A stretch of DNA of 64,000 nt from Marsupella aquatica (lineage: Eukaryota > Plantae > Marchantiophyta). Below the pieces are notes generated by a model that searched no databases, was not told the origin of the DNA, and saw only the letters and a list, made by a program, of their open reading frames with translations. Shown piece after piece: positions 1-37,453 of this stretch (positions are counted from its first letter, which is position 1; each line of letters opens with the position of its first letter). The stretch spans positions 6,543,708 through 6,607,707 of the forward strand of contig OZ316891.1 of NCBI GenBank assembly GCA_973895155.1. The letters are read 5' to 3'. A program made the position numbers and the translations under genes.

Positions 1-467
1 CAAGTGAGTTCAATGACGGTCCAGATTCAAAACCGAGATAAACGTGCTCATCGATTGTATAAGAGATTAGTTGAACTCAAAGTGCTTCCTACTGGATTAG
101 GAGCGATTTGGATGGGAGGCGTAGATCCTCAAGATAGTCTCAATCCGCTCCGAATTGAGTTTTGCAGAAAGAATGAGCAAGGAGTTCCGATTCGGTCAAG
201 AATTTTTTGAACGGTTGTCTGCATTCTGTTGATTCTTCGTGTAATTATTGTCGTGATGATGAAAACAAGTATCATCGATTGGCATACTTGTGTTGTCGAA
301 TTTGGAACGAAGATCCTTGGGTTAACTCTTCCCATTGAATCTACTTGATTCTAGGGTCACAAATATTTGGAGTTTTGTTCAGTATTCTTGGCTCTCAAAT
401 ATTTAGACATGATGTTTTTCTTTTGATCAAAGAAATAAAGTAATTGTTTTGATCCCTGTTTTGTAGG

Positions 468-764
468 CTCGGGGGTCTCACTATATGGGGACCTCCCCAT
501 CGCCTGCGACGTTTTTAGGGCTCGGACCCCCTAAAATGTAAGAAAAAAAAATTATTTTTTAACCCCTATAAAGTTGGAATATTCTTGGAATATTCTAAAA
601 ATTGGATTAAAAAGGCCCTAATGTTCTTATAAGTCTCAAAATTGAATTTAAAAGACCCTATTGTTCTTCTACAAAAATTCTTAAGTCTTCCCTTAGAACC
701 AATAAAATGACCCTATCCTTCGTCGCACGTGATATGCCATTTTTGTGGAAGTGAAACCCCCGAG
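468..764. mobile_element. 297-bp MITE, copy 1 (15-bp TIR CTCGGGGGT(C/T)TCACT, 8-bp TSD)
   Basis: Ends ctcgggggtctcact...agtgaaacccccgag; TSD tttgtagg at 460-467 and 765-772; near-identical copy at 37157-37453. Confidence 0.93.
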
Positions 765-847
765 TTTGTAGGTTCTTCAAACAGAGAACTTCTCCATTTT
801 CTCTATCACTCAAGGTATTCCTTTTTTCGTGTCAAATTGGTTTGGAA

Positions 848-1390
848 TGGCCGTCCCTCAAAACCTTGTCTTTGCAAGGTTAGCGACCATATTTGAGAAC
901 GAGAAGAAGAAACAAATTGAGCAGAAACGGAGCCGAAGGGAATCCGGACTACTTTTGGATGGACTTCCTGATGAGATTGTTGAAACGTTCATATGGCCTA
1001 TTTTGAAAGTTTCTTGCATCGAGGACGAATTTGATTCTTCCAAGATCTCGGCTGAAGAAAGACTCAGCCGATTAAAAGAAATGGTTTGGCTGGGATCCTC
1101 CTCAAAAAAAATGGAACCAGCTTGTAGTTTGTACACGAGTATGGGGTCTCCTTCGACTAGCACGAAGCCAGTTTGAGGGATTAAATGAATTGCTTGATAG
1201 CGTTCCCCATGGAGACCCACTTCAGAATGTTCATCTCGCAAACTTTTTTAGGATGGAAACTTTGAATCTTCCCCCAATCGATTTCCTTGGTTTGTTTTCG
1301 ACATCAGAACTAAGTCAATTTCAAGGGGACTGGCTAAATCTAGAGAAAGATCAACAAGCCAAACTAGTGGAAATATATGGACAAACTTGA
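848..1390 (+). pseudogene. F-box-like protein, frameshifted at a poly-A run near 1105-1111
   Basis: LLDGLPDEIVETFIWPIL, then after a 1-nt shift SKKWNQLV...RVW, continuing in frame into the 1190-1390 ORF; matches the F-box LP.E...S+.W..L pattern. Confidence 0.5.
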
Positions 1391-1883
1391 TTAATGTTCT
1401 ATCATTCATGCTTAGGTGTGCTCATGGTGAGCTACTTGTAAAAATGTTTTTCATGAATCAATATTTACTATCTTTTGTGGCACATCTTTGGACCAAACTC
1501 AGATTGTCAGCATTTTGCCCTGGCTGGCTTCCAGACCTTTAGTTTCTCGTTGCCAATAGCATCCAAATGAGGGTATCCCATATCGGATTACTCCACTATA
1601 TTTTTCCGTAAAACATTCTTCAAACCCTAAACCGCATACTAGATTAGCCGCGACTATTTCAAGCGACTATTTCGAGGAACTAACTGCCTTGTTACGTAGT
1701 GGACCCAGGAGAAAGTATAAATAAGAGTGCCTCCCCCAAAAGTTACGCTCATTTCTCATCTCTCACGCCGCCTCTCACTCTTTCCAAATACCCATTCTCC
1801 ATAGATATTTGTATTCCCTCGGCAGACACTCCATCACCAATTGAGAATACAATCTCCACGATATTTTCATACAAACTGGGAGG

Positions 1884-2286
1884 ATGAATCCGAAGTGGGA
1901 TACCGCGTATCCCACTTCGCATTCACTTTGGCCGAATTCTTGTTTGAGAAGAAAAATGCAATGAGATGTCGGGGATGAATATGAAGTGGAATACCGCGTA
2001 TCCCACTTCGCATTCAACATGCAAATCTTCAAAGTTATTGAAATCCTCAGCGCAACTAAGGGGATGAATCCAAAGTGGGATACACAGTATCCCACTTCGG
2101 ATTCATCTCCAAGATTTCATGCTTTCTTAATGAATAGCCAGAATAGGGGCGGTTCGATACGAAGTGGGATACCGTGTATCCCACTTCGCATTCATCCCCA
2201 AGAATTCATACTTTTTATATGAAAGAGCCGGAATAGGATGTGTTGGATACAAAGTGGGATACCGCGTATCCCATCTCGCATTCACA
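1884..2286. repeat. Five ~40-bp palindromes GAAT.C.AAGTGGGATAC-N3-GTATCCCACTT.G.ATTC at ~90-bp spacing, upstream of the MTase gene
   Basis: For example tgaatccgaagtgggatac cgc gtatcccacttcgcattca at about 1885-1925; others at about 1976, 2063, 2155 and 2245. Confidence 0.9.
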
Positions 2287-2341
2287 TATTGGATTATGGA
2301 CTTGTTGCTCAAGTGGACCATATTAGGCTTGAAATTCTAAC

Positions 2342-5290
2342 ATGTGGTTTGTTTTGCGCAGGATGTCGAACAAGTCAAGTGCTTTGGGTTCCTCTGGCTC
2401 TTCCCGACAAGCCATCATTGATGAAATCTGGAAAAAGGATCTCTATGTTGAGGAGAAATTCCTCAAGAACAAGTGGTATTTGTGTGATGCTCGTGAGCTT
2501 GATCTTCATCAAGCATATGCAGGCCCAGCATTATGGTTGATTGTCGTGAAGGGTAAAGAGCATTGCCACCAAGGATTGGTGATCGACACGGCCGAGTCGG
2601 ACATCGTTGATACAAAAACCAAGAAAGTTAAGAGGGTACCAATGTTTCTTTGCATTGGTGTTGATAAGACCTTCTCTGTGTTGGTTCTCAACTATGAGAA
2701 ACTTGATCGAGTCTCCATGAATGCATTTCCGGAAGACCCGATCACTCAGCTCGTGGCGGAGGCGCCTGATGTGGATGCATTTTTGTTTTGGTGCTTGAAT
2801 TATGTCTTCACGTCGTGGAAGGTGGTGCGGGACTTCATCAACATTGTGTATCGCTTAGTGGTTGGAGAAGACTTTAAGGGTCCCGAAAGAACTCCATTGA
2901 AGTTGAAGATACATAGGCCAACTAATCCGTCTGGGACAGTGGAGGGTTCGGAGACAACCACAACAAAAGAGCAGGCAGTTTCCGAGCCAAAGAACAAGAA
3001 GAAAGCACTAGCAACATCTGTTGGAAAATCTGGGGAAGGATCAGGTGCCACTATCTCCGAAGATCCTCTGAAAAAGAAGACTAAGTTGGATCGACGAGAA
3101 ATCCAAAAGAGAGTAGTGTCAATAGCTCCCCCTTCGCCTTTGAGATCGGTAGATGAGATTCCTCCAACTTCACAAGGTGGGCCATCCGTTGCATCGAAGG
3201 GGAAGGGTCCGATGATTCCAGGGGTTGGGAAAACATTGAAGAAGCACGAACCAATTTTCCAGATATTATTTAGATCAGGAAAAGTTTGGGACCTCCAAGA
3301 CCAGATCTTTGACATGTGGAACAGATTTGAGATCAAGGGGCAGACCAAACAAAAATCCCCTGTGAAGATAGTGAAGAAAGGGTCCAAGTTAAAGGCCGTG
3401 CCCGTCGTGAAACCTTTGAACAAGCTAGCAAATGGGCTAGCATTGACACCTTGGAGAGCGATCCAAGGGATTGAGCACGACCGGTTTTTGGAATCCCTTC
3501 TCCTTCAAGTCAAGGATCGAATGATCAGTCTAGAGCAAATGGCCAAAGAGGCCGAAAGTTACAAGAAGCTTGTGAAGATCAGTAAACTATTTGTGCAATT
3601 GTCTGGCCAACCAGACTAGGCAACTTGTAAACAGATGTTTCCCAAAGAGACGCAGTCTGCGGAGCTCGAAAGATGGAGTGGAAAACTCTTGGATGTGGTA
3701 AGTTGATTTTGTGTTTTCAAAGGTTGAATTCAAAACTGGATACGCGTATCCCATTTGGGATTCACAATCGATTCTGGCTCCATTCAAGTTGTTTCTTTCT
3801 TTTTGTCTGGGTGGAATCCGAAATGGGATACGGGGTATCCCATTTCGGATTCGACCCCAGGTTTTGGCTGTGTTAGCGTTGTTCCTTTGATTTTCCCTAG
3901 GTGGAATCCGAAATGGGATACCCCGTATCCCGTTTGGCATTCAACCCCGGGTTTTGGCTGTGTATGCGTTGTTCCTTTGAGTTTCCCTAGGTGGAATCCC
4001 AAATGGGATACCCCGTATCCCATTCGGGATTCAAGTTGGAGTTTGAGGGTTAGAAGCATGATTCACCAGATTTATTTAGTCGAATACCGAATGGGAGACT
4101 CGGTATCCCTCTTGGTATTCAGTGCATTAACTCTGGTGCCTTGATGTTTTATAGTTGAAAGCCTTCTCGAAGAAGAAGAACAAAATGGTTCAAGTGTCAA
4201 ATGATGGCGAGGAGACTGTTGAGGAGGAGCTTAGTTCCGATGTTATCCCCCTTGGTTTTAAGAATATGGTTCAGGAAGCTATTGAGAATTATAATCGTCG
4301 GATTGGTATCGATACTGTTCAAGCGGAATCAAGCGACCACCGTTGGAAAAATTCTGATGGAAATTTCATCAACTACACTCTCCACTGTGGAGATGTCCGG
4401 GCGCTTGATAGGTTCTTGGAGAAACGGCCTTACACACTTGCAGTCGCCGACATTCCTTATGGATTCAATGCCATCGGCTCTGAGAATGATGAAGTTCCAT
4501 TTTCAGAGAAAGATATTATTGATACATGGTGAAATGTTTTGCTAAGGTGACTACTTCACCTATGTGGAGGTTTGTTGTTATTCATTCGCTGCAACAAAGT
4601 GTCTCCGTTTTGAATGCTTTGGGAAAGACTTGCAACGCTGGAGTTGAGGCAGGAATTTGGGAGAAGCCAAATGTACATGCACACCCCTCCGGGAATAGGC
4701 TAGCTTGGGCGTTTGAGAACTGGTCCATTGGATATTATAATGAAGGTGGTATCAGGACCAGGGAAATGTACAATTTCGAGCATGATGAAAAAAGAATCAA
4801 CATCATCAAGGTTCCTTGTGTTACCAAAAAATGTGTAACACCCTTAGGGGAAGTAGTGAATCCGTATCAGAAGCCGATAGCCCTCACAGACTGGTTCATC
4901 AAGCATTTTAGTGAAGAAGGAGATTGGATTGTTGATTTATGCGCTGAAAGTGGGTCCACTTCGTGTGCGGCTTTGTTGGCAAAGCGACATGTTACAGCTT
5001 TGGAGTTGAGTGCTCAACAAATAGACTGTATCTAGACTCGACTAGTCACGCTGGATGAATCATGGGACTTGAATGAGGAAGCAATTGAGGAGGGTACAGG
5101 GCCGATGAGTTTTGAGATACAACCACCGATTGGTGGTATGACAAGCACTCTCACCACCGGACCTTGCATCATTACAACCACGGCTGAGAATGATGATGAT
5201 GTAGATGAAGACGAGGAGCAGGAGGAAGAGGAAGCAGAAGCTCCGGCATTAGATCTTGGCTCATTCCTCGAGGTGTCGAGATTATTTTGA
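2342..5290 (+). pseudogene. Two-exon gene: uncharacterised N-terminal region fused to a beta-class N4C/N6A DNA methyltransferase (exons 2342-3697, 4155-5290)
   Basis: Phase-0 intron GTAAGT 3698..ATAG 4154. Motifs LHCGD, LAVADIPYG (motif IV, DPPY-like), NPYQKPIAL, EEGDWIVDLCAESGSTSCAA (motif I) in beta order. Lesions: TAG 3617, frameshift near 4525, TAG 5033. Confidence 0.85.
3725..4122. repeat. Five GGGATAC-N3-GTATCCC palindromes (~90-bp period) filling the MTase intron
   Basis: gaatccgaaatgggatac ggg gtatcccatttcggattc at about 3814-3852; copies at about 3730, 3904, 3994 and 4082. Confidence 0.9.
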
Positions 5291-6714
5291 GATTAGATTG
5301 CTGCAAATGAGATTTCCCCAAATTGTATATGAACTTCTGGAAATATTCCAAGAGATTTAGATGTTCTTATGTGACAATAATGTCCTTGCAGGATCCACCA
5401 AAGGAGGTTATTGAATTGAAAAGTGTTCTTCATAGATTTTTGCACAATCCTTTTGTTGGTCATCTCCTCAATCAAGAAACATTGGAACAACTTGAACCCG
5501 ACCAATATTTGGGTGACGAAATTATGGAATTTTACCCAGAGTCCCAAACAGAAGAACAGGGAGATCTTGCTCCAATGGTAAACACGTTATCCTCCTTTTT
5601 TTATCCTTGGATGGCATCAAGGATTGAAAAAGAACCAACACATGAATCCCTTAAAGAATCTTTACAGAAAATGCGAGGTTATTACAAGCCACCATTTTCC
5701 AAGATTGAGGTTATTCTTATGCCAATTCACATGAGTGGCCATTGGAGTTTGGTTGTCATATGTTTGGATCGATCTCAATCTTTGATCCAAATGTATCATC
5801 TAGACTCACTTGCTGGTCGATCTACATGAAACTCATGTAATTGAATCGGCACTGAAAAGGTGAAAGACTTAACTTTATCTTCTAGTACTATTTGTTTTTC
5901 AAATGAGATTATTTAATTCATGTGATTATAAATGCTACTTTAACTAAGGAATCACTTTCAATGACTTGCAGATATTTCACAATAGAATGGGAACTATTTT
6001 TTGGAAAAGTGCCATTGGGTGTTATGGAGATGTGGAATCCAAAGGTATGTAATTTGTTTCATTTTTAATTCTTTTTATCTCTCTATTCATTAAAACTAGA
6101 AAATTCTTTGATCTTTGGACATTTGGGCACTAAAATACATATTTTTGGGCACAAGAATTGTACATTTGGGTAGTGAAAGTTGTACATTTGGGCACCATTT
6201 AATGTACATTTGGGGAATCAAGATTGTACATTGGGGAAAAATAAATATTAATTTGGATTCTAAAGAAAAACATTTGGGTGATAGAAATATAAAATGTGTT
6301 GGATAATAAATAAAACATTCATCTAGTCTAATAATTAAGATATAAGCTTGGATATGATCTCTACCCTAATCTTATGCTTTGATCATTAATAGGGTTCTAA
6401 ATTCATGTTATTCTAGTTGCTTGGAACTCTCCACACTAAAAGCAATTCTACACAAGAATCCAATATCAAATTACTCAAGAATCCAATATCAAATTACTCA
6501 AGAATCCATCAAGAACAATTTTACTAGAGCCTTCATAATAGGCCACACAAGAATCCAATATCAAATTACTCAAGAATCCATCAAGAACAAGTTTAAACTG
6601 AGACTCTAGATGAATTCAGAAGTGCATAAACCCCCTATGCAGTCATTTTCTACACATCAAATATGGAAAGAAATGCATGTACAATGCTTCACATGAGAAC
6701 TATCTAGTTAAACA

Positions 6715-8705
6715 TGTGGGAGAAAGAATAACAATGGGATGGGCGACCTCTCACTTGAAGCTATGCACCAAATTTGGCGCTCCAAATTTTGCTAGTTTCC
6801 ATATACTCCTCATGTAGTGTTGGCCATCAACGTCAATAGTAGTGGGTGCAGCAGCTAAACCAAATATTTGGAGCTCCACATTGTGCTAGTTTTTAAAATA
6901 ATATAACTGTCACTATTGCTGGCCAAAATTGCACCATCCCCAAGGCAACCTTAACTCCAAAACTGCACCATCCTAGAGGCAACCTTAACTCTCCATCAAT
7001 GACCAACAAACCTCTTTTCCTCACAAAAGTACCTACCCAAAGAGACAACAGTTGTTGGCTCTAGATGATCTTGAGGTAAAATAGTGATCCTCAATAACCA
7101 AGGAAATCATTCTAAAGATTCTCAACTATCACTAAACCCTTACACAAATGTAAAATAAGTTGTTAGCTATAGTTGATCTTGAAGGAAAATTGAGACTTGT
7201 AATTGCCTCAAAAAATCATTATATAGCAATTTCTCAAAAATCATCAAGAGACCTCAATTAATGAAAAGCTTACACAATTGTTGGCTCTTGATGATCTTGA
7301 GGTAAAATCAAGGCCCCTAAATTTCCAAGGAAACTGCTCTAAAGATGCTTCACTATCAAGAAATATATATCCAAAGCTTACACAATTGTTGGCTCTAGAT
7401 GATCTCGAGGTAAAATAAAGGCCTCTAAGCTTCCAAGGAAACGGTTGTGAAGATGCTTCACTATCAAGAAATACGTATGTGTGGGAGAAGGAATAGCAAT
7501 GGGATGGATGAACTCTCACTTGAAGCTATGCACCAAATTTGGAGCTCCAAATCTTCCTAGTTTCCATATACTCCTTACGTAGTGTTGGCCATCAACATCG
7601 ATACTAGTGGGTGCAGTGGCTGGACAAAATATTTGGGGCTCTACGGCTCCACGTCTCGCTAGTTTTCAAATACAACTATCACTATCACTAGCCAAAATTG
7701 CACCATCCCAAAGGCAACGTCAACTCCAAAATTGCACCATCCCAGAGGCAACCTTAACTCTCCATCAATGACCAACGAACCTCTTCTCCTCACAAAAGTA
7801 CCTACCCAAAGAGACAACAATTGTTGGCTCTAGATGATCTTGAGGTAATAGTGATCCTCAATAACCAAGGAAATCATTCTAAAGATTCTCAACTATCACT
7901 AAACCCTTATACAAATGTAAAATAAGTTGTTAGCTATAGTTGATCTTGAGGGAAAATTGAGACTTGTAATTGCCTCAAAAAATCATTGTAGCAATTTCTA
8001 ATCATCAAGAGACCCAATGAAAAGCTTACACAATTGTTGGCTCTAGATGATCTCGAGGTAAAATCAAGGCCCCTAAATTTCCAAGGAAACTGCTCTGAAG
8101 ATGCTTCACTATCAAGAAATACGTATCCAAAGCTTACACAATTGTTGGCTCTAGATGATCTCAAGGTAAAATAACGGTCTCTAAACTTCCAAGGAAACGG
8201 TTGTGAAGATGCTTCACTGTAAAAAAATACGTATCCAAAGCTTACACAATTGTTGGCTCTAGATGATCTCGCGCAAGGCAAAATGAAGGCCCCTAAACTT
8301 CCAAGGAAACCAATGTAAAGATGTTTCACTATCAAGAAATATGTATCCAAAGCTTACACAATTGTTGGCTCTAGATGATCTCGAGCCTGTAACACATGGG
8401 CCTCTAACTTGAAAGAAAACCGTTGTGAAGATGCTTCACTATCAAAAAATATGTATCCAAAGCTTACACAATTGTTGGCTCTAGATGATCTTGAGGCAAA
8501 ATAAAGGTCCCTAAGCTTCCAAGGAAACCGCTGTGAAGATGCTTCACTGTCAAGAAATATGTATCCAAAGCTTACACAATTGTTGGCTCTAGATGATCTC
8601 AAAGTAAAATGGGGACTCTAACTACCACAAAGATCACTACGAATGCATCCCTCACCCTAAACAAACCCTCGCCAAAGCTACAATAAACTCTTGGCTCTAG
8701 ATTAT
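6715..8705. repeat. ~765-bp tandem duplication (6715/7480) running into a ~109-bp tandem array with core GCTTACACAATTGTTGGCTCTAGATGATCTCGAG
   Basis: Core at about 7268, 7376, 8024, 8132, 8241, 8352, 8462 and 8570. Confidence 0.9.
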
Positions 8706-9459
8706 CTAGCTAGAGATAAACTAGATAATTGCTATAGAAATTGGTAGGGTTATGGGTTTAGGGTTTTCTGCCCCCAAAACCTGGCCTGATCTATCCTTAA
8801 CCAAAGCTCAGACCAATAGAAATATTAGCAAGGAGGAGCTCAAGAGACTTGGAGAGAGGGAGAGCGAGAGGAAGAGCAAGAGGAACAGAGAACAACATGA
8901 CAACAAAAATGAAACTAGTAAAATGATCCTCGCAACTGGGAACAAAGGATTATATGCCACCGACTGACTCACGAGAGGGCCCAACAATCTGCGTACGGAT
9001 TTGTGTACGGATTGCTTTAACTGCACACCAAGGGCATACGGGTTGCATTAAATGCTTTATCATACCTGACACACTTATGCCTCTCTCATACTTGTATCTA
9101 CCTAGTGTTGCCTTTGGACATGACATACGGTGCGTTGAGGAGATTTGAATTCCGATCATTTGCATTTTTATCTTTCCTCTTTCTTGCAAGAGCTCCTCCC
9201 TTCTTGCTCTTGCTTTGAGATCTTGGTTGTAGCCTCTAGATCTTAGTTTTAGCTTGGGTCGAGATCTATGTGCTAGCCTCAAGATCTTAGTTTTAGCTTG
9301 GGTTGAGATCTGTGGGCTAGCCTCGAGATCAATATGGTAGCCACATGGTTTTAGTGCTAGACTATAGGGTCAAGATCGGAGTCGAATCAGTTGTCACCAC
9401 TCATGATCGACCACGTGTCATCCATCAATTGCTTGTTGCGATGTCCACTCGGAGCACTA

Positions 9460-12400
9460 GGAGACTCTAGATCATCTTGAGCTTCTTGTCTTGACTTTGG
9501 TTTTATAGTGTAGAATATTGAAGCACTTGGAGGCTCTAGATCGAGCCTCTTGCATGTCTTCATTTTGGTTTAAGAGTGCAAAAATTGAAGCGCTTGGAGG
9601 CTCTAGATCATCTCGAGCCTCTTGTCTTGACTTTGGTTTCATAGGGTAGAAAATTGAAGTGCTCGAAGACTCTAGATCATCTCAAGCCTCTTGTCTTGAC
9701 TTTGCTTTTATAATGTAGAAAATTGTAGCACTTGGAGGCTCTAGATCACCTTCAGCCTCTTGTTCTGCCTTTTATTTTAGAGTGCAGAAAATTAAAGTGC
9801 TCGGAGGCTCTAGATCATCTCAAGCCTATTGTCTTGACTTTGGTTTTAGAGTCCAAAAACTTCAAGCGCTCGGAGGCTCTAGATCATCTCGAGCCTCTTG
9901 TCTTGACTTTGGTTTTAGAGTGCACAAAATTGAAGTGCTTGGAGGCTCTCTAGATCATCTTGAGCCTCTTGTCCTTAGTTTGGTTTTACAATGTAGAAAA
10001 TTTCTTGGAGGCTCTAGATCATCTCGAGCCTCTTGTCCTTAGTTTTGTTTTACAGTGTAGAAAACTTCTTGGAGGCTCTAGATCATCTCGAGCCTCTTGT
10101 CCTAACTTTGGTTTTAGGGTGCAAAAAATTGAAGCGCTTGGAGGCCCTAGATCATCTCGAGCCTCTTGTCCTTAGTTTTGTTTTACAGCGTAGAAAACTT
10201 CTTGGAGGCCTCTAGATCATCTCGAGCCTCTTGTCCTAACTTTGATTTTAGGGTGCAAAAAATTGAAACGCTTGGAGGCTCTAGATCATCTCGAGCCTCT
10301 TGTCTTGACTTTGGTTTTAGAGTGCACAAAATTGAAGCGCTTGGAGGCTCTCTAGATCATCTCAAGCTTCTTGTCCTTAGTTTTGTTTTACAATGCAGAA
10401 AACTTCTTGGAGGCTCTAGAACATCTCGAGCCTCTTGTCCTTAGTTTTGTTTTACAGTGTAGAAAACTTCTTGGAGGCTCTAGATCATCTCGAGCCTCTT
10501 GTCCTAACTTTGGTTTTAGGGTGCAGAAAATTGAATCGCTCGGAGGCTCTAGATCATCTCGAGCCTCTTGTCCTTAGTTTGGTTTTATAGTGTAGAAAAC
10601 TTCTTGGACGCTCTAGATCATCTCGAGCCTCTTGTCCTGACTTTGGGTTTAGGGTGCAGAAAATTGAAGCGCTCAGAGGCTCTAGATCATCTTGAGCCTC
10701 TTGTCCTGACTTTGGTTTATAGTGTAGAAAATTTCTTGGAGGCTCAGATCATCTCGAGCCTCTTGTCCTTAGTTTGGTTTTCTAGTGTAGAAAACTTCTT
10801 GGAGGCTCTAGATCATCTCGAGCCTCTTGTCCTGACTTTGGTTTTAGAGTGCAAAAAGTTGAAGCGCTCGGAGGCTCTAGATCATCTTGAGCCTTTTGTC
10901 CTTAGTTTTGTTTTACAATGTTGAAAACTGCGTGGAGACTCAAGATCATCTTAAGCCTCTTGTCTTGACTTTGGTTTTAGAGTGCAGAAAATTGAAGCCC
11001 TCATAGGCTCTAGATCATCTCGAGCCTCTTGTCTCGACTTTGGTTTTAGAGTGCAGAAAATTAAACTGCTCTGAGGCTCTAGATCATCTCGAGCCTCTTG
11101 TCCTGCCTTTGGTTTGAAAGTGCACAAAATTAAAATGCTTGGAGTCTCTAGATCATCTCGAGACTCTTGTCCTGACTTTAGTTTTAGAGTGCAGACAATT
11201 AAAGTCCTCGGAGGATCTAGATCATCTTGAGCCTCTTGTCTTGACTTTGGTTTTAGAGTCCAAAAACTTCAAGCGCTCGGAGTCTCTAGATCATCTCAAG
11301 CCTCTTGTGCTGACTTTGGTTTTAGAGTGCACAAAATTGAAGCGCTTTTAGATGCAGCCTGTGGGAGGGAGCCTGTGGGAGTGGCGCAGCTTTTTGTCTT
11401 GCACCAGATTCTCTGGAGGCTCTGGATTGGGAGAAACACTCACATGTTTCAGACGGGGGGGGGAGACGTGTGTTTGACCTGGGACTTGTCCTGTCGGAGG
11501 CAGTGGAGAACTTATTCGCTACTGGTCGGCGTTGCCCCCATGGTAGGAGGTGCACTCGCCTGCTATGGGCCAAATCATGTATTGATGGGCTTTGCAGGAG
11601 CTGGCTCGATGGTGGGGGGACCAGTTTCACTTCCGCTGGATGACTCTGATTTTTCTGTGAGGTTGGAACGTTGAGACCAATGAATGTATGGTTCTGGGGG
11701 CAGGGATGCCCTATGGCTGGTTATTAGGTTGTGTGGTCGTCCTCTTTTGCTGTTAGGTATCGCCGGGGAGGTTAATTCCTTGCCTGATGTGGGATTAAGG
11801 TGATTTTTTGAGGTTTGGTCCTCTGTTCTGTCTTGGCTGTCTCCCGTGAATATGATCTGTTTGTGCGCCCTCCCCGTGGGGCTTTTCGCAGGGGAACTGA
11901 AATTTATAAAATGGCTACCATTCCAAGGAAAATTGAAGTGCTTGGAGGCTCTCTAGATCATCTCGAGCCTCTTGTCCTTAGTTTGGTTTTACAGTGTAGA
12001 AAACTTCTGGGAGGCTCTAGATCATCTCGAGCCTCTTGGCCTGACTTTGGTTTTAGAGTGCAAAAAATTGAAGCGCTTGGAGGCTCTAGATCATCTGAAA
12101 CCTCTTGTCCTAACTTTGGTTTTAGAGTGCAAAAAATTGAAGCGCTCGAAGGCTCTAGATCATCTCAAGCCTTTTATCTTGACTTTGGTTTTAGAGTGTA
12201 GAAAATTAAAGCGTTTGGAGGTTCTAGATCATCTCGAGCCTCTTGTCCTGCCTTTGGTTTTAGACTGCACAAAATTAAAGCGCTTGGACCGAGGCTCTAG
12301 ATCATCTTGAGCCTCTTGTCTTGACTTTAGTGTGAGAGTGCATAAAATTGAAGCGATTGGAGGCTCTAGATTGTATAAAGCCTCTTGTCTTGACTTCTGT

Positions 12401-12800
12401 TTTAGAGTGCAAAAAATTGAAATAGTCTAAGGCTCTAGATCATCTCGAGTCTCTTGTCTTGACTTCTGTTTTAGAGTCCAAAAACTTCAAGTGCTCGGAG
12501 GCTCTAGATAGTCTCGAGACTCTTAGCTTGTCCTGACTTTGGTTTTAGACTGTGGAAATTGAAGCGCCTGAAGGCTCTTGATCATCTCAAGCCTCTTGTC
12601 CTAACTTTGGTTTTAGAGTGCTGAAAATTGAAAGCGCTTGGAGGCTCTAGCTCATCTCGAGCTTCTTGTCTTTGACTTTGGTTTTAGAGTGCAAAAAATT
12701 GAAGTGCATGGAGGCTCTAGATCATCTCGAGCCTCTTGTCCTTACTCTGATTTTAGAGTCCTGAAAACTATTAGCACTTGGAGGCTATCGATCATCTGGA
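9460..12800. repeat. ~63-68-bp satellite (roughly 40 units) with quasi-palindromic core GAGGCTC-TAGATCATCTC-GAGCCTC; interrupted at ~11350-11927
   Basis: Continuous ggaggctctagatcatctcgagcctcttgtc units; the ORFs here (EALDHLEPLV repeats) are repeat artefacts. Confidence 0.95.
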
Positions 12801-13834
12801 GTCCAAAAGATTCAAAGGGGTTTTGCTTTAGGTCTTTTGTGGAGCCAAGTTATTATGATAATTGTTGTACCTGTCCTATAAGTTCTGGAATATAGTGTCG
12901 TAGGTGGTGTGCAACCGAGGTATGAAATTTGATTTTTCAAGGTCTGGACTTGCTTGCTCAAATGATTTCTACCAACTAAGAGAGTCATGAGTGTAATATT
13001 TAGTCAAAGATAAACCCTCCATTTGGGTCTAGACTATCTCAACCATCTAAGTATGATAAATATAAGTTCTTACATAGATAGGAGATTAGGGTGGTTGCAA
13101 TCTCTACCCTTAATTAATAAGGACAAATGACCATTCATCACTTGCTACCCTTGACAGTCAAACTACCATATTTACTAGTGTTACTTAGGGTAGAGACGAT
13201 TGACTAAACTGATATAGTGATTCATGTATTTTCAATAATTTTAATTTAATATATTGTATATAGATTGTTATATTCTATTCATTGATATGCTTTTTTAGAC
13301 TATATAATAATAATGATACTATATAGTATAATAATATAACTTTCTATTATATGAATATTAATTAATTATAAATTACTATTTAGTTATTTAATAATTTAGG
13401 TACAAGAAGTGTAATTTTAGACCACAAAAAGTGTACATTTGGCCTACCAAATATATACTTTTGGGGCAAATTTTGTGAAATTTTGGGTAGCAAAATAATA
13501 CTTTTGAGCATCAACTTTTGGACTCTAGAAATTCCAGTTTTAATGAATAGAGTGATTTTTGGGTTCAAAAACATATCTATAAATTGTACTAAAATACACC
13601 ATGTTTTTTATCAGGTGCCACAACAACCAAATACCACAGATTGTGGTTTATTTGTCCTGCACAACATGGATGAAATTAGAGTTCGATGGAATAATTCAAA
13701 ATCTGTATCCGCAGAGTCTTTATTTACAAGAGATTGGTACAACCCCACACAAGCATGTCATCTGCGAAAGGTGATCAGAGATAGAGTTATGAAATTAATG
13801 CATGTATCAGCCTAGTTTAATTAGTAAATGAAAC

Positions 13835-16800
13835 TCAATCTTCTGAAGATACAGAACCTCGCTCTAAAATAGCAGCCTCTATGATCTTCTTTATTTTTGC
13901 TGCTATTTGGTTATTTGTCAAAAGTGCAAAATTGTATGCATATATCGCTATTGACGACAAAACTAGTTCATCTTGATGAAGTCTATTAGATACATTATCT
14001 TTTTCTGGAAAATATTTTCCATCAATTGCAGTCTCAGCACTTGCCTCAGTTGTGTACCACGTGATTTTGATTCTTTTCGGAATGTCTTCTCTTTTTGTCA
14101 AAATCTTTTCGACACCTTTGCCATCCAAAATAACTTGCCTTCTGGATCTTTGTGTGCTGCTACGCATATCATTGACCATTTGTTGTTCACTTCCATATCT
14201 TTGAAATCCCCAAGTTCAGGTTGCTTTCGCCGAGGACCTGAGTACATAATCCTCTGTGGTCCTGCAACTTTATCAACTAGAGTTGGGTCAACATCTTCGG
14301 ACGTCAAAATCTGATTTGTTGACACACCACCAAGTCCACGCCTTTCATTTTGTTGTGGCCAAACCCATTCAAATAACCACTCACCCTCCTCTAAGTGGTT
14401 TTTGATAACATCATTTTGCTTCTCAAAGAATGTCATCCACCATAGTTTATCTTCATCGTCAAAGTAATTGAATCCCTCTTGAATTGCTTTTTGATATTTC
14501 ACCAGAATGGATAATGCACCATTTGAGTCCATCAGATCATCATCTCGTTCAACACCTTTTGCTGACTTTAGTGACATCTGTGCTGCAACCCACATTCTTG
14601 AAGTGGGGATGTAGTTGACAAATGCTACCACGTCTCCCCAATCAGAGGTTGTAGATAGATGTTTCCCATGAAACATGGTCACTTCGTTATCATCTACAAT
14701 GCCTCGCTTGAATCTGAATTGCCTTTGAAAAGTTATGAGGTTGAGATCTCTCAAAACTCGACCTGAAACTCCGTTGTCATTTGGTTGGTCGGTCTCATTC
14801 ACAAATTTTCTGAAGTCTGCAACTTCATCCACAAAAATTACATCTGCTTGAGGAGAATATGCCCATTGTATAATATCCACAAGAGTATCTAAGCGAAATG
14901 CTTTATGCTTGTTTAATCTAGATGAGAACTTGCTAAACATCTTATCTATTTGGTCATGCGTATGACCAACCAACAAAAAACCAACTTTTATCTTGTCAAA
15001 AACCTTTAAATCTACCAACATGTGTAGATAAGCCATCAAGAATTTATTCTTGTTCTCCCTAGTGGTATTATCCAATTGAAGATATAATACCCGTGGCAAT
15101 ATCCCATCCCATGTATTCAAAATATTTTGAATAACATGAATGGTGAGATAATTTGCATCATTGTGGATGTTGGGGTAGGTCAGAAAAACTTTTGCCGCAA
15201 GCTTTCTATTAAAGATAAGACAACCCACAACATGGATAGGGATGAAATATTTCTCATCCATGTTCTTTGGACAACGAATAAAATGTGGTAGCTCAGTTTT
15301 CTTTTGATCCATACTGTCAATACAAATACCCAAATACTTGTTGGGTTCATCATAGCATTTCTTTCGATGCTTTGCCAACTTCATCCTCTCGAGTGATTGT
15401 ACTCTTCAATGCTCCATAAGAGCGTTGATATACTTTCCTGCAATAATACAATCATGTGTAATCAATAAATTATCTATTCATCATTGTGTCTAACTTATCA
15501 CTATCTTACTTAGACACAAATGTGAGGTTACAATGAACTTACTTTTATCTTCTTCTGTCGTTGCTTTGTCTCGAAGAGCCTTGAATTCGGTACATGGACC
15601 ACAAGTGGAAAAACAACTCCTTTTGGGAATCCGCACATTTGAAAACTTCTTCTTCCAAACGCGCAAGAAATAAGAATATGTAACATATTGCTCTTCCCGC
15701 AAGATTGTTTCGGCAAGAAAGATTTCATGAATCTCTTGCTTTGTCCAATTGTTTGGCAAGTGATGAATTTCTTTATGAGGAAGACTATCCATGTTTCTTT
15801 GAAAGAAATCTTTCAACCATTCCACCAAGTTGAGAAATGAAGGTGAGTCTTCCTTACAGAATGTATCTCGTTCAATCCTGGTGAACATGTTTGCATGGAT
15901 TGTAGCCAACCTATTATTCCCTATGGAATATAATTTCTTGAAACCTCCTCTACAAATAGTTTGTCCATTCACACTATATCCACGGGAAGTATTATAATTA
16001 CTCATAATACATCCTCGCAAAAGAATGTTTTTTTGTGAGTGTGAGGGACCAAAATAATACTTACGTTGTTTCCAACATTCTTCTAGACCTAAAGACCTCA
16101 AGCAAAACTTGTCACAACAAGAATACTTAAAAATATCTTTAATTTTTTGTTTTTTCAAGTTCGCATTGATAAGCCTATCTTTTCGAATCATCTGGTCTCT
16201 AATTTTTTTGCTTGGTCTTCTCACCTCTATTCTATCTTGTATTGTGTTGGGAGAATTCACTCCTCCACTAGTTTCCATGGGACTCATTGAACTTAAAACA
16301 AAAGTATCTTGATTTTCTCCGGTATTACTTTCACTCTCTACATTTTCTAAGACTGGTTCGTGAGCACTCTCGCGACCAAGGATCTCTTTAACAATATTTG
16401 AGATTTCAACAGTCCCTATGGCATCCTCTACGACATCGGCTGGTACCTCCGATTCTTCTTCAGATTCTTCTGGAAAAGCAATTGGTACCCGAAGATTTCT
16501 TGTCTGAAATCTTCTACCGATATTCCTTGCTTCTATCGGAGTATCCCCCACTTGTCTCTGAAAGTGTGATCCTTGCCTTGGTGTCTCATCTCGACTAGAG
16601 GGATCATCCTGACCATTGAATAGTCTTTGAACAACCTTCAATTTTCCTTCTAGCCTTGAATTTTCGGGGCAAGTTTGTGGCAACGCACTTTGCAACAATC
16701 TGTGAGGCATTTGATGGACACCTGCAGCATTTGTGACACTTGATCTCCTTCCTCCCTTTTGAAATGGTCGTCCTACCAAAGATCCAGCAACCTCACACTG

Positions 16801-17928
16801 CATTCGAGCCAAAGGGCTTCGAAGCCCAAAGTTGATGTTTGATTGACCACTAGGCGAAATCACCGATGGGAACACGGAATGGGATCCATGGATCCCAACT
16901 CGTATTCGTCCACTTGGACTTCGAAGTGACAGCTGCCCCACTTGTGGTTCTATGGTAGCGCTTGACAATTGACCATTGTGTAAAACAAAGTGGGATCCAC
17001 GGATCCCCTGTCTCATTCCTCCACCCAAAGCGACTAACAAAGTTTGTCCGCTTTGCAATTTGGGCTCAACATTTGGTAAAATTCCAGGAGGGGATACCAA
17101 GTGGGATCCGCGGATCCCCTTCCGCATTCCTCTCCCCGAATCAGCAGGCAATGGTTTTTCGCTTCGCATTTCGGGCTCACCATTTGGTAAAATTCTAGGA
17201 GGGGATACCAAGTGGGATCCACGGATCCCATTTTGCATTCCTCCCACCAAATCAGTAGGCGAAGGTTGCCCGATTTGCAATTCTGGCTCGCCATTTGGCA
17301 AAATTCCAGGAGGGAATACCAAATGGGATCCACGGATCCCACTTGGTATTCCACTAATGGCATTTGGTAGCGAAGGAGATGAAATTGGCAATTCACGCTC
17401 TCCATTCCGCAAACTTCGAGTAGGGATCCCTCTGGGTATTCTTCGTGCGGCTGGCACTTCTAGCACCGTCGAACTTCTCATTCGCTCAAACTGCGATTGC
17501 ACACTAGACAAAGCTATCTGGACTCCAGGAGGACGCGACATTGGGAAAACCAGAGGAGATCTCTTGGCGGGCCTACATAGCAACATTGTTCTTGGCATTA
17601 TAAACCGAGGCCGACGCTTGGGTACATCTGGAGGGGTTCACGGTGAACTAGTCTGACCTAAGGGTATGACAGTGGACTTTCTCCCAAGCAAACGTCGTTT
17701 AAGCGGTTTGCTTGGAGAAACATAATAAGGTGTTGGAGCTCCAACAACACTTCTCCCACACTCGGAATCAGGCCCTGAACTCTCTGAATCTGATGAAAAT
17801 GACATCTCTGGCAAAACTCTTTGTGAGACTGGAAGCTCCTTCATCAAACGAGATGGAATGAATTTTCGAACAACATCTGGCGAAGATGCATCAGAACTAT
17901 AAATAGACTCGTCACCTGAAGACGCCAT
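13835..17928 (-). pseudogene. Sola-like DDE transposase with long low-complexity N-terminus; intron 15438-15542
   Basis: CCDKFC, ICRGGFKKLYSIG, YFLRVWKKKF.NVRIPK..FSTCGPC, CIDSMDQ, LYLQLDNTTRENKN, FLLVGHTHDQIDKMFS; phase-1 GT-AG intron; TGA (from CGA) after the intron and frameshifts near 17620 and 14100. Confidence 0.75.
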
Positions 17929-18900
17929 TGAGATAGTATCAAGGTTCTATAGGAGTAAGGATTCCTATGGGGAGTGGACCGTTCCAGTGACTCCAATCTA
18001 GGAAAATAGAGACTCAATATTTGAGAACCTAAAATGAGTCATAAAAAATGAAGACGGAATCACATGCGAGCTTGTTCTTATATAGTTTTTGGGAAGATGT
18101 CCACGTGGCTTCCATTCATTGGTCCGTACAAATTTTTAAATGTGAACAAAATTGATCTTTGAGAGAAAAGAGTATTCCAAAATTGTTTGTTTCTTGAGTT
18201 GGATCGGACAATGGGATCCATGGATCCCGATTGGTATTCAAACATTGATTTAGCAACGCGGGGGTTTGACAAGGGCAAATTTGGAAGGGTGAATACCAAA
18301 TGGGATCCGTGGATCCCATTTCGTATTCACCCCGACTTTTGGCTTAGCTCTTTTTGGACTTGGGAAATAAAATGGGATCCATGGATCCCTGTTGGTATTC
18401 ATATCTCTAATTTGTTAGATGGAGGGTGGCGGTTGGGAAATAAATGGTCTACAGTATGTCCAACCATCTGCTTGGGTTAACTTAACTGACTGCATTTGTC
18501 GACCATGGTTGCTAGTAAAGTTTATACAGTACGTCGTTTTACCTTTGGTAAATATTCAAATCTAGTTTACTCGGTATGGTAACTTAAGGCCCCAAATGAT
18601 CAACTTAGTGTGTTTTTGTTTGATTTTCCACGGATGAATCTGAAACGGGATACGGCGTATCCCATTTTGGTTTGAATGATTTGCTTGTCAAATGGAGATT
18701 TGTGTTATTGAAGCTTTTCCGGGCGAATTGATTAAGCGCGCGGAAATAGGACTTGAAAATCATTGTTTTATGGGTTTTGTGTTTGACAAATATTTTTGGG
18801 ATCAATTGTTCTAAAATCAAAGATTTTAATGATTTTCCATTTTTTGTCAAAAAGTATCTCAATTTGGAATCGGATGTTGGATCCAATTTTGCATTCATCT
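16875..18900. repeat. GGGATCC-N2-GGATCCC palindromes in the 5' coding part (111-bp period) and upstream of the transposase
   Basis: About 16880, 16991, 17102, 17213, 17324, 18213, 18301 and 18373; a GGGATAC-N3 type again at about 18647. Confidence 0.9.
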
Positions 18901-19019
18901 AAGAATTTGTGTTTTTGATATCAATTTAAGATATTTTTTGCCGTTTTTTGCAAAAATCAAAACACACTTCTCGTTTGGTCGTCACACTTCTCGTTTGGTC
19001 GGTCATCGTGTTTAAGGAG

Positions 19020-19330
19020 TATGTTGATACTCTCATCTTACGCACTTGAGAATGAAAGGCAATGCCTGGTCTTATGGCAAGTGCCCCTTCTTTGTAGGGT
19101 CTAGAAATAGTGTCCAATGCAACATACAAGAGCCTTTTCTTGGCAGTGTCATCACTCCTTCCCCACAACAAAATACAAAAATTATTTTTTTAATCACTTA
19201 TATCCAATCTTCTAGATGCTAAGCAACATAACATGGTACACAGGGATAGCACAAAGAACATGCTCCAGAAGGACCAGCCTACCAAGTTGTGTACTTAAGA
19301 CAATATCCAATTGGTCCAATGTCGCAATCA
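19020..19330 (-). mobile_element. Degenerate L1-type LINE ORF2 fragment
   Basis: Minus-strand peptides GRLVLLEHVLCAIPVYHVM and LWGRSD..KKRLLYVALDTISRPYKEGALAI resemble plant L1 post-RT motifs (GRLVLIKSVL.AIP.Y; FLW...VAW..I..PK.EGGLGI). Confidence 0.65.
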
Positions 19331-19499
19331 TTATCCGCCTCTTGCGCTGGTTGGATGCCATTGCCAATGGGACAGCCCAGGTAAGTGATGACCCCCCCTT
19401 TGCTAGAATGCAACACCCAGTTCTCTGTATCCAATCAGGTCACTTTGAATCATATTAGAGGTCAGTGATAAGATTTATGGATGTTAAGAAGAGCACCAG

Positions 19500-22380: not shown

Positions 22381-25300
22381 GTAAGCCTACTTTAGGTGGT
22401 AAAAATTTGTTTTAATTTTGAGTTTTAGATTCGACTAATCGATAGGAAAGACGAATACCTGAATGGATGACTGAACAACTGGACGAAGCAGGAAGTGTTA
22501 AAGGGGAAAACAAAAGAAATTTTCTTGTTTATTGAAATTCTACGCAGATATTGCAGATTGATTGAATTTTGAAGCACAGATTGAGAATAATTCAAATGCA
22601 AATGTTTTCTGCTCTTTTTCTTTTTTTGGCTTTTGTTTGTCACATTCAAACAATTTGTACAACTAAAGTTTAGATTGTAAGGTGAACTTGTTTATGAAAA
22701 TGAGAAAGTTGTAATGGAAGTTGACAAAGTAGTTGAAATTTCGAACTTCTGAGTGGAGTTTGCTCGCCAGGAGTTTGGTGATTTCTTGTGCGAAGGTTTT
22801 TAAACTTGCGTTATTTGGCACGTGGTTGTATCGGGAGTAGAGGGGCATTGCAGATGGGATAGATTACTTCTATTTATTTATTTATTTATTTGCATTTTTT
22901 GACAGTTTTAGTATCACGGATGTATTAGTTTTGTGATGGTCACAATTTCAACGTGTCGACCCCTCCCCCTTGTAACTTTTATGTATTGACCACAGTTCTA
23001 ACCATGGTTTGCTAGGCTAGCGGGCTACGTGGCGGTGATAAGCTACAACGTTTTTGAGAAGTTGCAAAAATTGATGTTTAGTAGTGGTTGCTAAGAGCCC
23101 ATCCTAGTGTGCAGATCTTCTTCACTTTTATCTCCAGGATAAAGCTAAAGATAATACACAAAACACAACTAATTATGCAAATAAACAAGGGGGTCCACTG
23201 ATTAATTCTCACTTGGAGAAAAGAAAGAATATCTCTTACGTGTAAACAAGTTCCTTGCATTATGATTGATTTCAAAATTTGGAAATCTACTTAAAGGGAA
23301 ATTAACAAAAGAATCTAGGATAACATAGATGACAAACATTGAGAGGGGGCAAAATAGGCTGAAAATCCAATTAATACAAATGATGCACCTTGTTTAGGCA
23401 CATTGAAAATAAAAATACACAAAAAAAAGTTTGGGTAAGATAAAATATTGATGAAAGGTGAATGGGGTATTTACAAACGACTTGAGACGGTTTGCTACTT
23501 TCCTTGATTTTGCTACTAAGGATCTCCTGTATGATAGTTTCCAAAACCCAACTCCTTTACAATCATCCGTCCGCTACGTGGTCAGGTCCAGTTCAGCTTT
23601 GATTTCAGGCTCGGGTTTTTTCTATTTAGCATGAATGATCTAGCTAGGACTGTGTTCACATCCCGATCCCTTCAAATGCGATCGTGCGATAATTGTAAGA
23701 ACAAAATGATCGGGATTTGCAACTAACAGTACCGACGGTCACGATAGAGCTCTCTTCGATCTTCTCCTATCTACCAGATGGTTATAATAACAGAGGTGAA
23801 GTCCTGCCTAGATCTGGTCCTAAAAGCGTCCGAGTTTGCTAACCAGCTCCAAGATGGTTGGTACAAAGGTTCCGCTGAGGTGGAGTCATTCAAAGCCCAA
23901 GTCTCGATACTTCGTCAGAAGCATGATCAGTGGAGCGCTCAGCTACGGAGGCATGGGGTTTCGGAGGACGAACGGCTTTTGCGGGCAGTGCAGGCAGCCG
24001 TTCAGGTTCTGGACAAGCAAGAGCAATACGTGAGAAGACTCCAGAAAAATCATCTCTTGAGATTGAGGAGAAAGGCATTCCCCGGCCAGCTTACCTATGT
24101 CTTGAAAAATGTCTCGGACATCGTGGACGCTGGGCCTCAGCTGCTGGCCGCAAGGGTTGATACGTTTGATGTGTTGGAGAGAATCGTAGCCCTGACTCCG
24201 GCTCCATTGCCTTTCATTCCGGATCCCAATTACGTCCCGATTTCAGAGTCTGTTCTAGAGATACGAAAAGCGTTGGAGGATAAAGAGGGCCCTCGCGTAG
24301 TGACTGTGTTTGGAGGGCCCGGACTGGGCAAGAGTAGTGTGGTGAAATATTTAGCACTCCAGTACGAAGAGGAGAGAAAGCAAGGCTTAAAACAACCCCC
24401 GAGCATCCCACTCAGTTTTCCATATGGTGTCTACTATTTGTTTTGTGGAAAGGACGCCCAAGAGAGTATGAAGCAGTTGGAGCTAGAGCTGGTCGAGTGT
24501 CTGGGCTTTGGACCGGGTTCAAGTTCAGCTCCACTGAATGACCAGACGGGTAACGGAATGCAGGAAGGCGGCTATCTTCAACTACCTTTACATCGAATGA
24601 AGCTTAGATCACGCTTAGCTGAGCAAACCTTGCTCATTGTACTGGATGATGTATGGGAGCGGCAGGTTTTGCAACAGCTCTTGCAATTGGTTCCTGCGAA
24701 GGGAGTACGATTTCTCGTAACATCCCAGATGAAAGAAATTTGGGATTCTGCTGCAAAAGTCCAGATGAGATATCCGAATCTTGCAGAAGCCACGCAAATC
24801 ATGTCGAATTACACAAACGGACTTACGATGAAGGGAAAATTTCCTGACAACATTCAGGTACAACTTCAAATCTTGCTACTGCAGTTTTCTGTCTGAGGTT
24901 CAGGGAACTGTCTGTGGATGTCTTGCTTTCACTTGAATTAATGTTAGCAGCCCTTGCGTCGTTGATTGCTACCAACCGTTCAAAGTGTACAAGCAAAGAG
25001 ATCTTAAACCGTAATAGTAACTGTTATCCATAAAGGATTTACTGATTTCGAGCGTTTTCCATTGCCTGTAGAGTGTGATTAATGCCATCATCAGGAAAGT
25101 AGGCTACCTTCCACTATCTTTGGCTCATGTTGGCATCAGCGTAAACAGTAGCAGAGCAACTGATGCAAGTCATTGGGAAGCGATCAATGATAATTTACAT
25201 CAAGTTCTTCTGCACGAGGACGACTTCCAGGTCAGTCCGGGTATGTATGAGAAATATTACGATCGCACAGTCGCGACCTCAATGATGCTCATGGTGGAGT

Positions 25301-37156: not shown

Positions 37157-37453
37157 CTCGGGGGTCTCACTATATGGGGACCTCCCCATCGCCTGCGACG
37201 TTTTTAGGGCTCGGACCCCCTAAAATGTAAGAAAAAAAAATTATTTTTTAACCCCTATAAAGTTGGAATATTCTTGGAATATTCTAAAAATTGGATTAAA
37301 AAGGCTCTAATGTTCTTATAAGTCTCAAAATTGAATTTGAAAGACCCTATTGTTCTTCTACAAAAATTCTTAAGTCTTCCCTTAGAACCAATAAAATGAC
37401 CCTATCCTTCGTCGCACGTGATATGCCATTTTTGTGGAAGTGAAACCCCCGAG
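37157..37453. mobile_element. 297-bp MITE, copy 2
   Basis: Same TIRs as 468-764; 8-bp TSD ctgttact at 37149-37156 and 37454-37461. Confidence 0.93.

Follow-up and report, generated by a model that had tools for sequence, protein, structure and literature searches.

The first 19,012 bases of the window (the whole 64,000-nucleotide stretch of Marsupella aquatica contig OZ316891.1 analysed here) are a dead copy of a repeated, Sola-like DNA transposon with a DUF7869 transposase. It is almost certain that this transposon has a methyltransferase as a conserved partner, and its formal membership in Sola1 is likely. Opposite the transposase, the sequence points to what is likely one spliced accessory gene, predicted to encode an N-terminal domain, a ParB-type helical part, a beta-class amino-methyltransferase and probably a Ulp1 protease. 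We propose, with a probability of roughly 0.6, that the transposon-borne methyltransferase serves a self-marking, anti-silencing mechanism. The basis of this proposal is derived entirely from sequences and models, from which we infer the methylation, the splicing and the anti-silencing.

Contigs from four public sequencing runs were aligned to the window as the source of other copies. The whole block 1-19012 was covered in all four runs, and the right end of the element is sharp at 19012 (…CGTGTT). When the runs were aligned to 18720-19420, at least 8, 10, 11 and 16 contigs had loose ends at 19012-19016. The flanks beyond 19012 were unlike one another, with an agreement of about 0.5 where several contigs were present, and the contig cover dropped there to the single-contig level. 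In three runs, a contig carried the flank from 19013 onward and then other sequence (more than 31 letters on that side in only one of them), which fits an empty or paralogous site. The terminus at 18959-19012 contains a 20-bp tandem pair and ends in …GGTCATCGTGTT, which reads 5'-AACACG on the other strand. A preliminary description of this DNA, made from the sequence alone, had proposed one autonomous element family, drawn from 848 to 19010. The sharp terminus, the many unlike flanks and the flank without the element agree with one repeated and mobile family, and the right end is refined here to 19012.

The left limit of the earlier span did not hold. No inverted partner of the right end was found above shuffles in 1-2400, or anywhere in the window at 3 mismatches, and the contig cover of 1-1400 was like that of the rest of the block (one contig joins 315 to 4964); for these reasons, the left end would lie beyond base 1. 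A coding-like plus-strand stretch of unassigned kind at 1-350, seen in several contigs per run, is probably within the element, and Pfam gave no family above the cut-off for 1-207. The size first called giant included 7.5 kb of a separate nested transposon, but the element is still at least 11.2 kb long after subtraction of both nested elements, if it reaches base 1. The copy was rightly called dead, as it carries four stops (3617, 5033, 15406 and 17638), four frameshifts (near 1110, 4524, 5827 and 14109) and a degenerate methyltransferase motif I. Since the two extra bases at 4524 were missing from the contigs of other copies in three of the four runs, and those at 14109 in all four, these two lesions are specific to the window copy.

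The transposase is encoded on the minus strand at 13835-17928, in exons 17928-15543 and 15437-13835 that contain the stops at 17638 and 15406 and the frameshift near 14109. Pfam DUF7869 matched the minus strand at 14101-15405 with an E value of 4e-44. This agreed with the Sola-like transposase recognised earlier, and its stop at 13835 is where the preliminary description put it. The transposase intron is found at the same place in one relative, L006. The motifs IDSMDQ, QLDN..ENKN and GHTHDQID are present, and the three acidic motifs, read here as the Sola triad of a DDD-type transposase, were kept in 101, 105 and 102 of 120 relatives. The transposase had no sequence match in the PDB and matched no MULE family.

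The methyltransferase exon, with an acidic tail, lies on the plus strand at 4155-5272, is broken by the frameshift near 4524 and a TAG at 5033, and has a possible stop of its own at 5288-5290. Pfam N6_N4_Mtase matched at 4523-5032 (E 6.6e-7, 29.9 bits against a cut-off of 26.7), and motif IV (DIPY) precedes motif I, which is the beta order. The window copy has DLCAESGS as motif I, while its relatives have the DLCCGTGS type. Between family members, the proportion of nonsynonymous differences was 0.05-0.26 against 0.50-0.95 for synonymous ones (15 pairs). Synonymous sites were near saturation in 14 of these pairs, and the remaining one gave a dN/dS of about 0.07, so the dN/dS check called for at the outset indicates strong purifying selection on the methyltransferase, measured in this one unsaturated pair.

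As for the product, the first residue of motif IV was Asp in 96 of 100 motifs and Ser in 2, neither of them in the close family. Ser at this place is a sign of N4-cytosine (N4C) methyltransferases according to the accessible text of PMC4738411. With a wide profile, all close structure matches were DNA methyltransferases; the N6-adenine (N6A) enzymes DpnA, CcrM, MboIIA and RsrI matched with E values between 4e-17 and 1e-11, and N4C enzymes reached 1e-4 at best. Because of the Asp-first motif IV and this ranking, N6-methyladenine (6mA) is the likelier predicted product than N4-methylcytosine (4mC), if the enzyme is active as predicted. Asp-first N4C enzymes do exist. The N4C/N6A methyltransferase named in the preliminary description is thus present, and 4mC has become the less likely of its two marks.

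Several results on the enzyme weigh against the proposed mechanism. The close-family profile left N6A and N4C enzymes unseparated (E 0.009 against 0.015), the close family has DIPY or DVPY and so lacks the first Pro of motif IV, and GATC as the marked site showed no consistent enrichment over synonymous shuffles. The strict motif [DNSH]PP[YFW] does not occur in the close family. This non-canonical motif, together with the methylase domains of DIRS elements that are judged inactive in the accessible part of PMC4738411, could mean that the fold is an inactive module for binding DNA or S-adenosylmethionine, or acts on RNA, and that no foreign base is made in DNA. We consider this rather improbable, because motifs IV and I are both kept under strong selection, DPPY occurs among the more distant members (12 of 100 motifs), and the close structures are all DNA methyltransferases.

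The conserved partnership is seen in relatives collected by one metagenome scan, in which 41 candidate stretches gave 9 loci, six of them close. The transposase followed the methyltransferase tail to tail in four of the six close loci, and the other two ended 300-360 nt past the methyltransferase stop. A homolog of the first accessory exon stood upstream of the methyltransferase in all five loci reaching that far. In Riccia, the methyltransferase R1sor_020633 is two locus tags from the transposase R1sor_020635, for which the chance is estimated at about 0.7% per gene. Two points weigh against a general linkage: the six close loci all come from one metagenome assembly, and a second Riccia, six Chara and three Adiantum methyltransferases had no transposase tag neighbour among the matches listed. 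The two unrelated elements that do nest in the block could suggest a chance accumulation, in which insertions of separate origin landed around a host methyltransferase gene present in one copy. The conserved linkage, the shared terminus and the many unlike flanks contradict such a coincidence, which we regard as extremely improbable; the methyltransferase is part of a repeated family and not a single-copy host gene.

Relatives of the family are found in several plant lineages. Fourteen of 195 candidate proteins matched the methyltransferase at 60-64%, and a methyltransferase profile search gave 1771 proteins at E 0.001, of which 150 were listed. Species could be assigned to 12 of 20 mostly long matches, namely Chara braunii (6), Adiantum nelumboides (3), Riccia sorocarpa (2) and Ginkgo biloba (1). 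Riccia accounted for 47 of 120 transposase relatives among the matches listed (hand count), and others came from Adiantum, Chara and marine animals. Together with the plant-type CACTA and Copia elements of the window, these relatives point to a seed-free plant as the host. In a methyltransferase tree of 38 rows chosen for long matches, the named plants fell into one 25-row group with 89/90 support; the tree is unrooted and has no prokaryotic reference, so it indicates no donor. No methyltransferase relatives were found in viral contigs (69 candidate stretches) or prokaryote genomes (16).

The open reading frame (ORF) at 2333-3697, left unnamed in the preliminary description, represents exon 1 of the predicted gene that also encodes the methyltransferase. 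By tblastn to L001-L005 and alignment, this plus-strand exon (2342-3697, starting at 2342 or 2363) comprises an N-terminal domain, a low-complexity linker and a C-terminal ParB-like helical part, with a premature TAG at 3617 where the relatives have Trp. A phase-0 GT-AG intron is predicted at 3698-4154 and harbors a palindrome array (3720-4035). The phase-0 GT after exon 1 and the CAG before the methyltransferase are conserved at the same places in all five relatives, and the two ORFs are therefore predicted to be exons of one gene. Proteins combining ParB with the methyltransferase are known from Chara, Riccia, Adiantum and Ginkgo; the two form one polypeptide in named proteins of Chara and Ginkgo, and the region was present in 24 of 188 methyltransferase-matching proteins. 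In predicted structures, the fold of the relatives' ParB region matched ParB, Noc and Spo0J (E 1.4e-6; Z 9.4), with a predicted local distance difference test (pLDDT) score of 75 from a 19-row alignment and 37 from a single sequence. The window exon lacks the ParB N-domain and the first helices, and its match to the 377-aa exon of L003 begins near residue 217. The alignment indicated that the linker is fused in frame to the tail of the ParB region; at this place the exon of L002-L004 has about 215 residues that the window copy lacks.

The family palindrome GGGATMC-N2/3-GKATCCC had 16 matches, against 0 in 100 shuffles. The palindromes reported before are real and far above chance, but they do not run through the whole block; they form five clusters (1897-2272, 3825-4021, 16881-17340, 18213-18389 and 18647), with none at 4022-16880 and none in the terminal 340 bp. 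An array of GGGATAC-N3-GTATCCC with a period of about 90 bp is located upstream of the accessory gene (1882-2284), five GGGATCC-N2-GGATCCC palindromes with a 111-bp period occupy the transposase N-terminal region (16881-17340), and others are upstream of the transposase (18213-18663). Those at 16881-17340 are in frame in the coding exon and give a 37-aa repeat, so that putative binding sites lie within an exon. A reading of the palindromes as a peptide feature was ruled out by the same motif in introns and upstream DNA.

In the relatives, palindrome arrays were observed at matching places, namely upstream, in the accessory-gene introns and after the accessory gene. Each family has its own word, which is GAGCGAGAC-N2-GTCTCGCTC in L002, L004 and L005, CCGAT-N6-ATCGG in L003 and GGGATMC in the window. 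Just upstream of a distant methyltransferase relative (L009, 11-1106), palindromes of the form TCGAGATAG-N-CTATCTCGA were also noticed. Such family-specific words would suggest a binder encoded by the family itself, for which ParB is the natural candidate and the transposase a rival one. The window copy weighs against ParB here, as it retains the palindromes yet lacks most of the ParB region; should the whole subfamily have lost it, binding may fall to the transposase. Just ahead of a conserved FQIAF helix (L002 2471-3157, L003 1864-2994, L004 177-1163, L005 3-605, window 3230-3270) there is a segment with HDH in the three loci whose palindrome is the same, and with HDP or HEP in the two whose palindromes have GAT-type arms. 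It is a candidate specificity code, with too few cases so far.

A Ulp1 protease domain follows the methyltransferase on the plus strand, as the preliminary description stated. Pfam Peptidase_C48 matched in two pieces, 5311-5826 and 13384-13812 (E 4e-11 and 2.4e-5), and the stop at 13815 was confirmed. Exons 5392-5859 and 5972-6044, with the frameshift near 5827, carry the His and Asp of the triad, and the last exon (13615-13815) carries the oxyanion Gln and the catalytic Cys. The triad and the Gln are thus complete over three predicted exons (GHW, HLDS, QQPNTTDCG), and the best structures were SENP7 and SENP2 (E 4e-6). C48 enzymes also cleave NEDD8 or ubiquitin. A predicted 119-nt phase-0 GT-AG intron at 5273-5391, with splice sites assigned by sequence, would link the methyltransferase to Ulp1. 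Against this link stand the weak donor GTGTCG and the stop at 5288-5290, at the position where the relatives end. We moderately favor a methyltransferase-Ulp1 fusion from these predicted splice sites.

Ulp1 was found in none of the 9 metagenome loci, including all four relatives that span the methyltransferase and the transposase, and in none of 308 retrieved proteins. In one run, contig joints of equal depth at 5276-5477, 5538-5679 and 5818-5966 extend from the methyltransferase end through Ulp1, which suggests a diverged copy with the same methyltransferase-Ulp1 order. Because it is absent from the relatives, yet the order appears to be kept in a diverged copy, Ulp1 is a capture by a subfamily and not a family norm. 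The absence from relatives and the natural stop could also mean that the core element is as described above and that Ulp1 is a separate or functionless passenger, while the F-box-like ORF discussed below, for which no support was found, encodes no F-box and belongs to no toolkit. This is a serious alternative, to which we give somewhat less credence than to the fusion, considering that the stop is just 100 nt from the Ulp1 frame, that the phase-0 GT-AG sites fit, that the full catalytic set is retained, and that other copies keep the order without the nested insert.

The fourth gene first proposed, an F-box gene, was not borne out. A frameshifted plus-strand ORF at 847-1390 has a translation with a putative F-box-like motif, a resemblance only. 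Two pieces searched separately matched nothing in Pfam, NCBIfam, PDB sequences, the protein collection or the Atlas, where the frameshift within the motif lowers the sensitivity. Matches of this ORF to armadillo repeats were dismissed as sums of weak repeats. Of the recurring gene order expected at the outset, the relatives show the methyltransferase-transposase linkage, with Ulp1 absent and the F-box unverified. A family-wide toolkit of four genes is not supported; what the family conserves beside the methyltransferase is a ParB domain, which the preliminary description had missed.

CpG observed/expected was measured at codon junctions, which are largely free of protein constraint. The element has 51 CpG against 93.6 expected (0.54), its relatives 225 against 290.7 (0.77), and host genes 58 against 69.6 (0.83), and the neighbouring CACTA and Copia elements have 9 against 92.0 (0.10). 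The element was above CACTA/Copia with p 3e-8. The CpG loss of the latter two is probably old, because their frames are nearly open. The retention fits a Sola lineage in which CG methylation has long been low, or an escape from host 5-methylcytosine, as judged from base composition. It is weakened as evidence in three ways: the element is below host genes (p 0.03), the low values come from just two control copies (a CACTA and a Copia), and the relatives come from another host without a control there.

CpG retention could also mean that the element came in recently by horizontal transfer, from a donor with little methylation, and was not actively protected. Plants and marine animals both have related transposases, and similar elements are known in algae. 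However, synonymous differences between the subfamilies have reached saturation, and every named relative of the methyltransferase belongs to the streptophytes, which suggests long residence, and we find a recent arrival unlikely.

In the self-marking mechanism that we prefer, the accessory transcript would splice the N-domain, the ParB part and the methyltransferase together, and the ParB part would recognise the family palindrome as ParB recognises parS. The enzyme would be active and write 6mA rather than 4mC at the palindromes. The mark or the bound protein would then keep CG methylation off, and the family would avoid host silencing. The captured Ulp1 would be spliced on as a C-terminal SUMO protease for the same end, as proposed for KIU/VANC, anti-silencing proteins of VANDAL MULEs. 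If the ends of the window copy are still mobile, they would need the proteins of intact relatives, as this copy lacks the ParB N-domain. In a bolder and rather doubtful version, a land-plant Sola subfamily would have swapped the cytidine triphosphate (CTP) clamp of ParB for a SUMO protease, and one protein would write 6mA on the palindromes and strip SUMO from silencing factors there.

The accessory protein might instead be a transposition helper, in which ParB would bind the palindromes so that the ends are paired or marked. Methylation would then time or license the transposase, as a form of self-recognition, with silencing unaffected. The ParB fold in the relatives agrees with this role, as do the palindrome arrays close to the right end and to the promoters of both genes, and Dam is known to control bacterial transposition. 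It leaves the CpG retention and the Ulp1 capture unexplained, and the terminal 340 bp has no palindrome; we hold this alternative to be unlikely.

The self-marking mechanism has parallels in systems that are described in the accessible parts of the following reports. Sola1-1_Ec32 of the brown alga Ectocarpus (PMC12477816) is 21.5 kb long and has an opposite-strand gene for a 1104-aa protein with ParB and an N4C/N6A methyltransferase. Its authors propose self-binding and self-marking. According to the supplement, its termini are AACCG-CGGTT with a 4-bp duplication, and its best match is a Physcomitrella Sola1 transposase; Physcomitrella Sola1 is also listed in PMC9033089. Our element shares with it the giant Sola layout of more than 10 kb, the accessory gene opposite the transposase and, in relatives of the window copy, the ParB-like region and methyltransferase in one protein. 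The termini AACACG-CGTGTT resemble AACCG-CGGTT in this one comparison. The window copy differs from Sola1-1_Ec32 in the lack of the ParB N-domain and the presence of Ulp1; the accessible text describes neither Ulp1 nor palindrome arrays, and the two were compared by description only. By analogy, the window element may work like Sola1-1_Ec32.

The preliminary description knew of no report of the combination in plants. No land-plant Sola with a methyltransferase or Ulp1 was found in the literature, within a scope that excluded Bao et al. 2009, Repbase reports and Iyer et al. 2011, which may describe extra Physcomitrella Sola1 genes. On the other hand, the layout of Sola, ParB and methyltransferase and the idea of self-marking are already in print for algae. 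The accessible parts of PMC4455052, PMC5751038 and PMC3985635 contain no motif definitions for Sola1-3.

Other systems resemble the element in part. The Plavaka elements with PAG2 and PAG3 of the red alga Bostrychia (bioRxiv 10.1101/2025.02.11.637652) are also giant transposons with a PF01555 methylase and a ParB-like protein beside inverted-repeat arrays, but they have an EnSpm transposase, and their methylase-SET and ParB-2OG oxygenase fusions are on separate genes. KIU/VANC of VANDAL MULEs (PMC13317346) has a captured Ulp1 on an anti-silencing gene and family-specific short non-coding motifs, and its own family is hypomethylated; it differs in its MULE transposase, its VANC, its angiosperm hosts and the absence of a methyltransferase or ParB from the accessible description. 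The DAM-carrying DIRS and long terminal repeat (LTR) retrotransposons (bioRxiv 10.64898/2026.05.21.726589) similarly bear a prokaryote-type methylase, an adenine methylase linked to active chromatin. They are retroelements with Dam-type enzymes, and 'Sola' is absent from the main text of that report. MpDN4MT1 of Marchantia (bioRxiv 10.1101/2021.02.12.428880) and the bdelloid N4CMT (PMC8885841) are likewise beta-class amino-methyltransferases of bacterial origin in eukaryotes. Both are encoded by the host, carry SPPY and produce 4mC, whereas the present family is Asp-first, resides in a transposon and is of another type.

Two other elements are inserted in the block. At 468-764 there is a 297-bp miniature inverted-repeat transposable element (MITE) with ends CTCGGGGG and an 8-bp target duplication. 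A second copy at 37157-37453 is 99.3% identical, and the target duplications of the pair are TTTGTAGG and CTGTTACT. The pair is young and unrelated to the Sola-like element. Dozens of unlike flanks of this MITE were seen in one run, and its first copy is at a predicted splice acceptor. The other is a non-coding element of 7476 bp at 6079-13554, in the last Ulp1 intron, with terminal inverted repeats of 25 bp, CACTC/CTCTC ends and an AT duplication. Its palindrome is a different one, with 34 matches within the element and 0 elsewhere. Contigs joined across it, with the insert absent, in three of the four runs. It consists mostly of two opposed arrays, of 108-bp and 69-bp units, of the imperfect palindrome GAGGCTC.AGAT.ATCT.GAGCCTC. 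It resembles a non-autonomous copy from a different family with palindrome arrays, and its end features are EnSpm-like.

Further along the window, a CACTA transposase (Transposase_21, DUF4218, DUF4216) with very low CpG is located at 50903-55384. The ORF before it has a weak SET match (E 0.21, below the cut-off) and is possibly the cargo of a second transposon with a chromatin function. A Copia pol fragment (RVT_2) is found at 31221-33641, and a 347-bp direct repeat (27584-27930 and 33848-34194, 96.5%) may represent the Copia LTRs. The Copia element apparently interrupts a host gene (23748-27687 and 35855-36502) that encodes an NB-ARC/STAND domain together with helical repeats. A photolyase-family host gene is on the minus strand at 58211-59304 (Pfam DNA_photolyase, E 3.7e-16), and a diverged tandem array with a period of about 600 bp and 73-85% identity occupies 61460-64000.

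What is new is the occurrence in land plants, the family-specific palindromes at conserved places, the Ulp1 capture and the host-like CpG retention; for the specialist this is a useful extension and no surprise in kind. The ParB-methyltransferase accessory protein, so far an algal prediction, is now placed in land-plant transposons. Open-frame relatives, a distinct palindrome per family and the CpG footprint predicted by the anti-silencing idea provide material for tests. The capture of Ulp1 has a counterpart in KIU/VANC, which belongs to an unrelated superfamily, and this points to SUMO as a recurring target. If the doubtful swap of the ParB clamp for a SUMO protease were true, it would explain why CpG is kept in this lineage and lost in the neighbouring transposons, and such elements, with a range that takes in Chara, ferns and Ginkgo, would supply land-plant genomes with local 6mA from an enzyme that has stayed hidden. 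In the accessible text of bioRxiv 10.64898/2026.05.21.726589, 6mA is held to be lost from major multicellular lineages, and a transposon-borne 6mA writer would give a precise place to look for it in plants.

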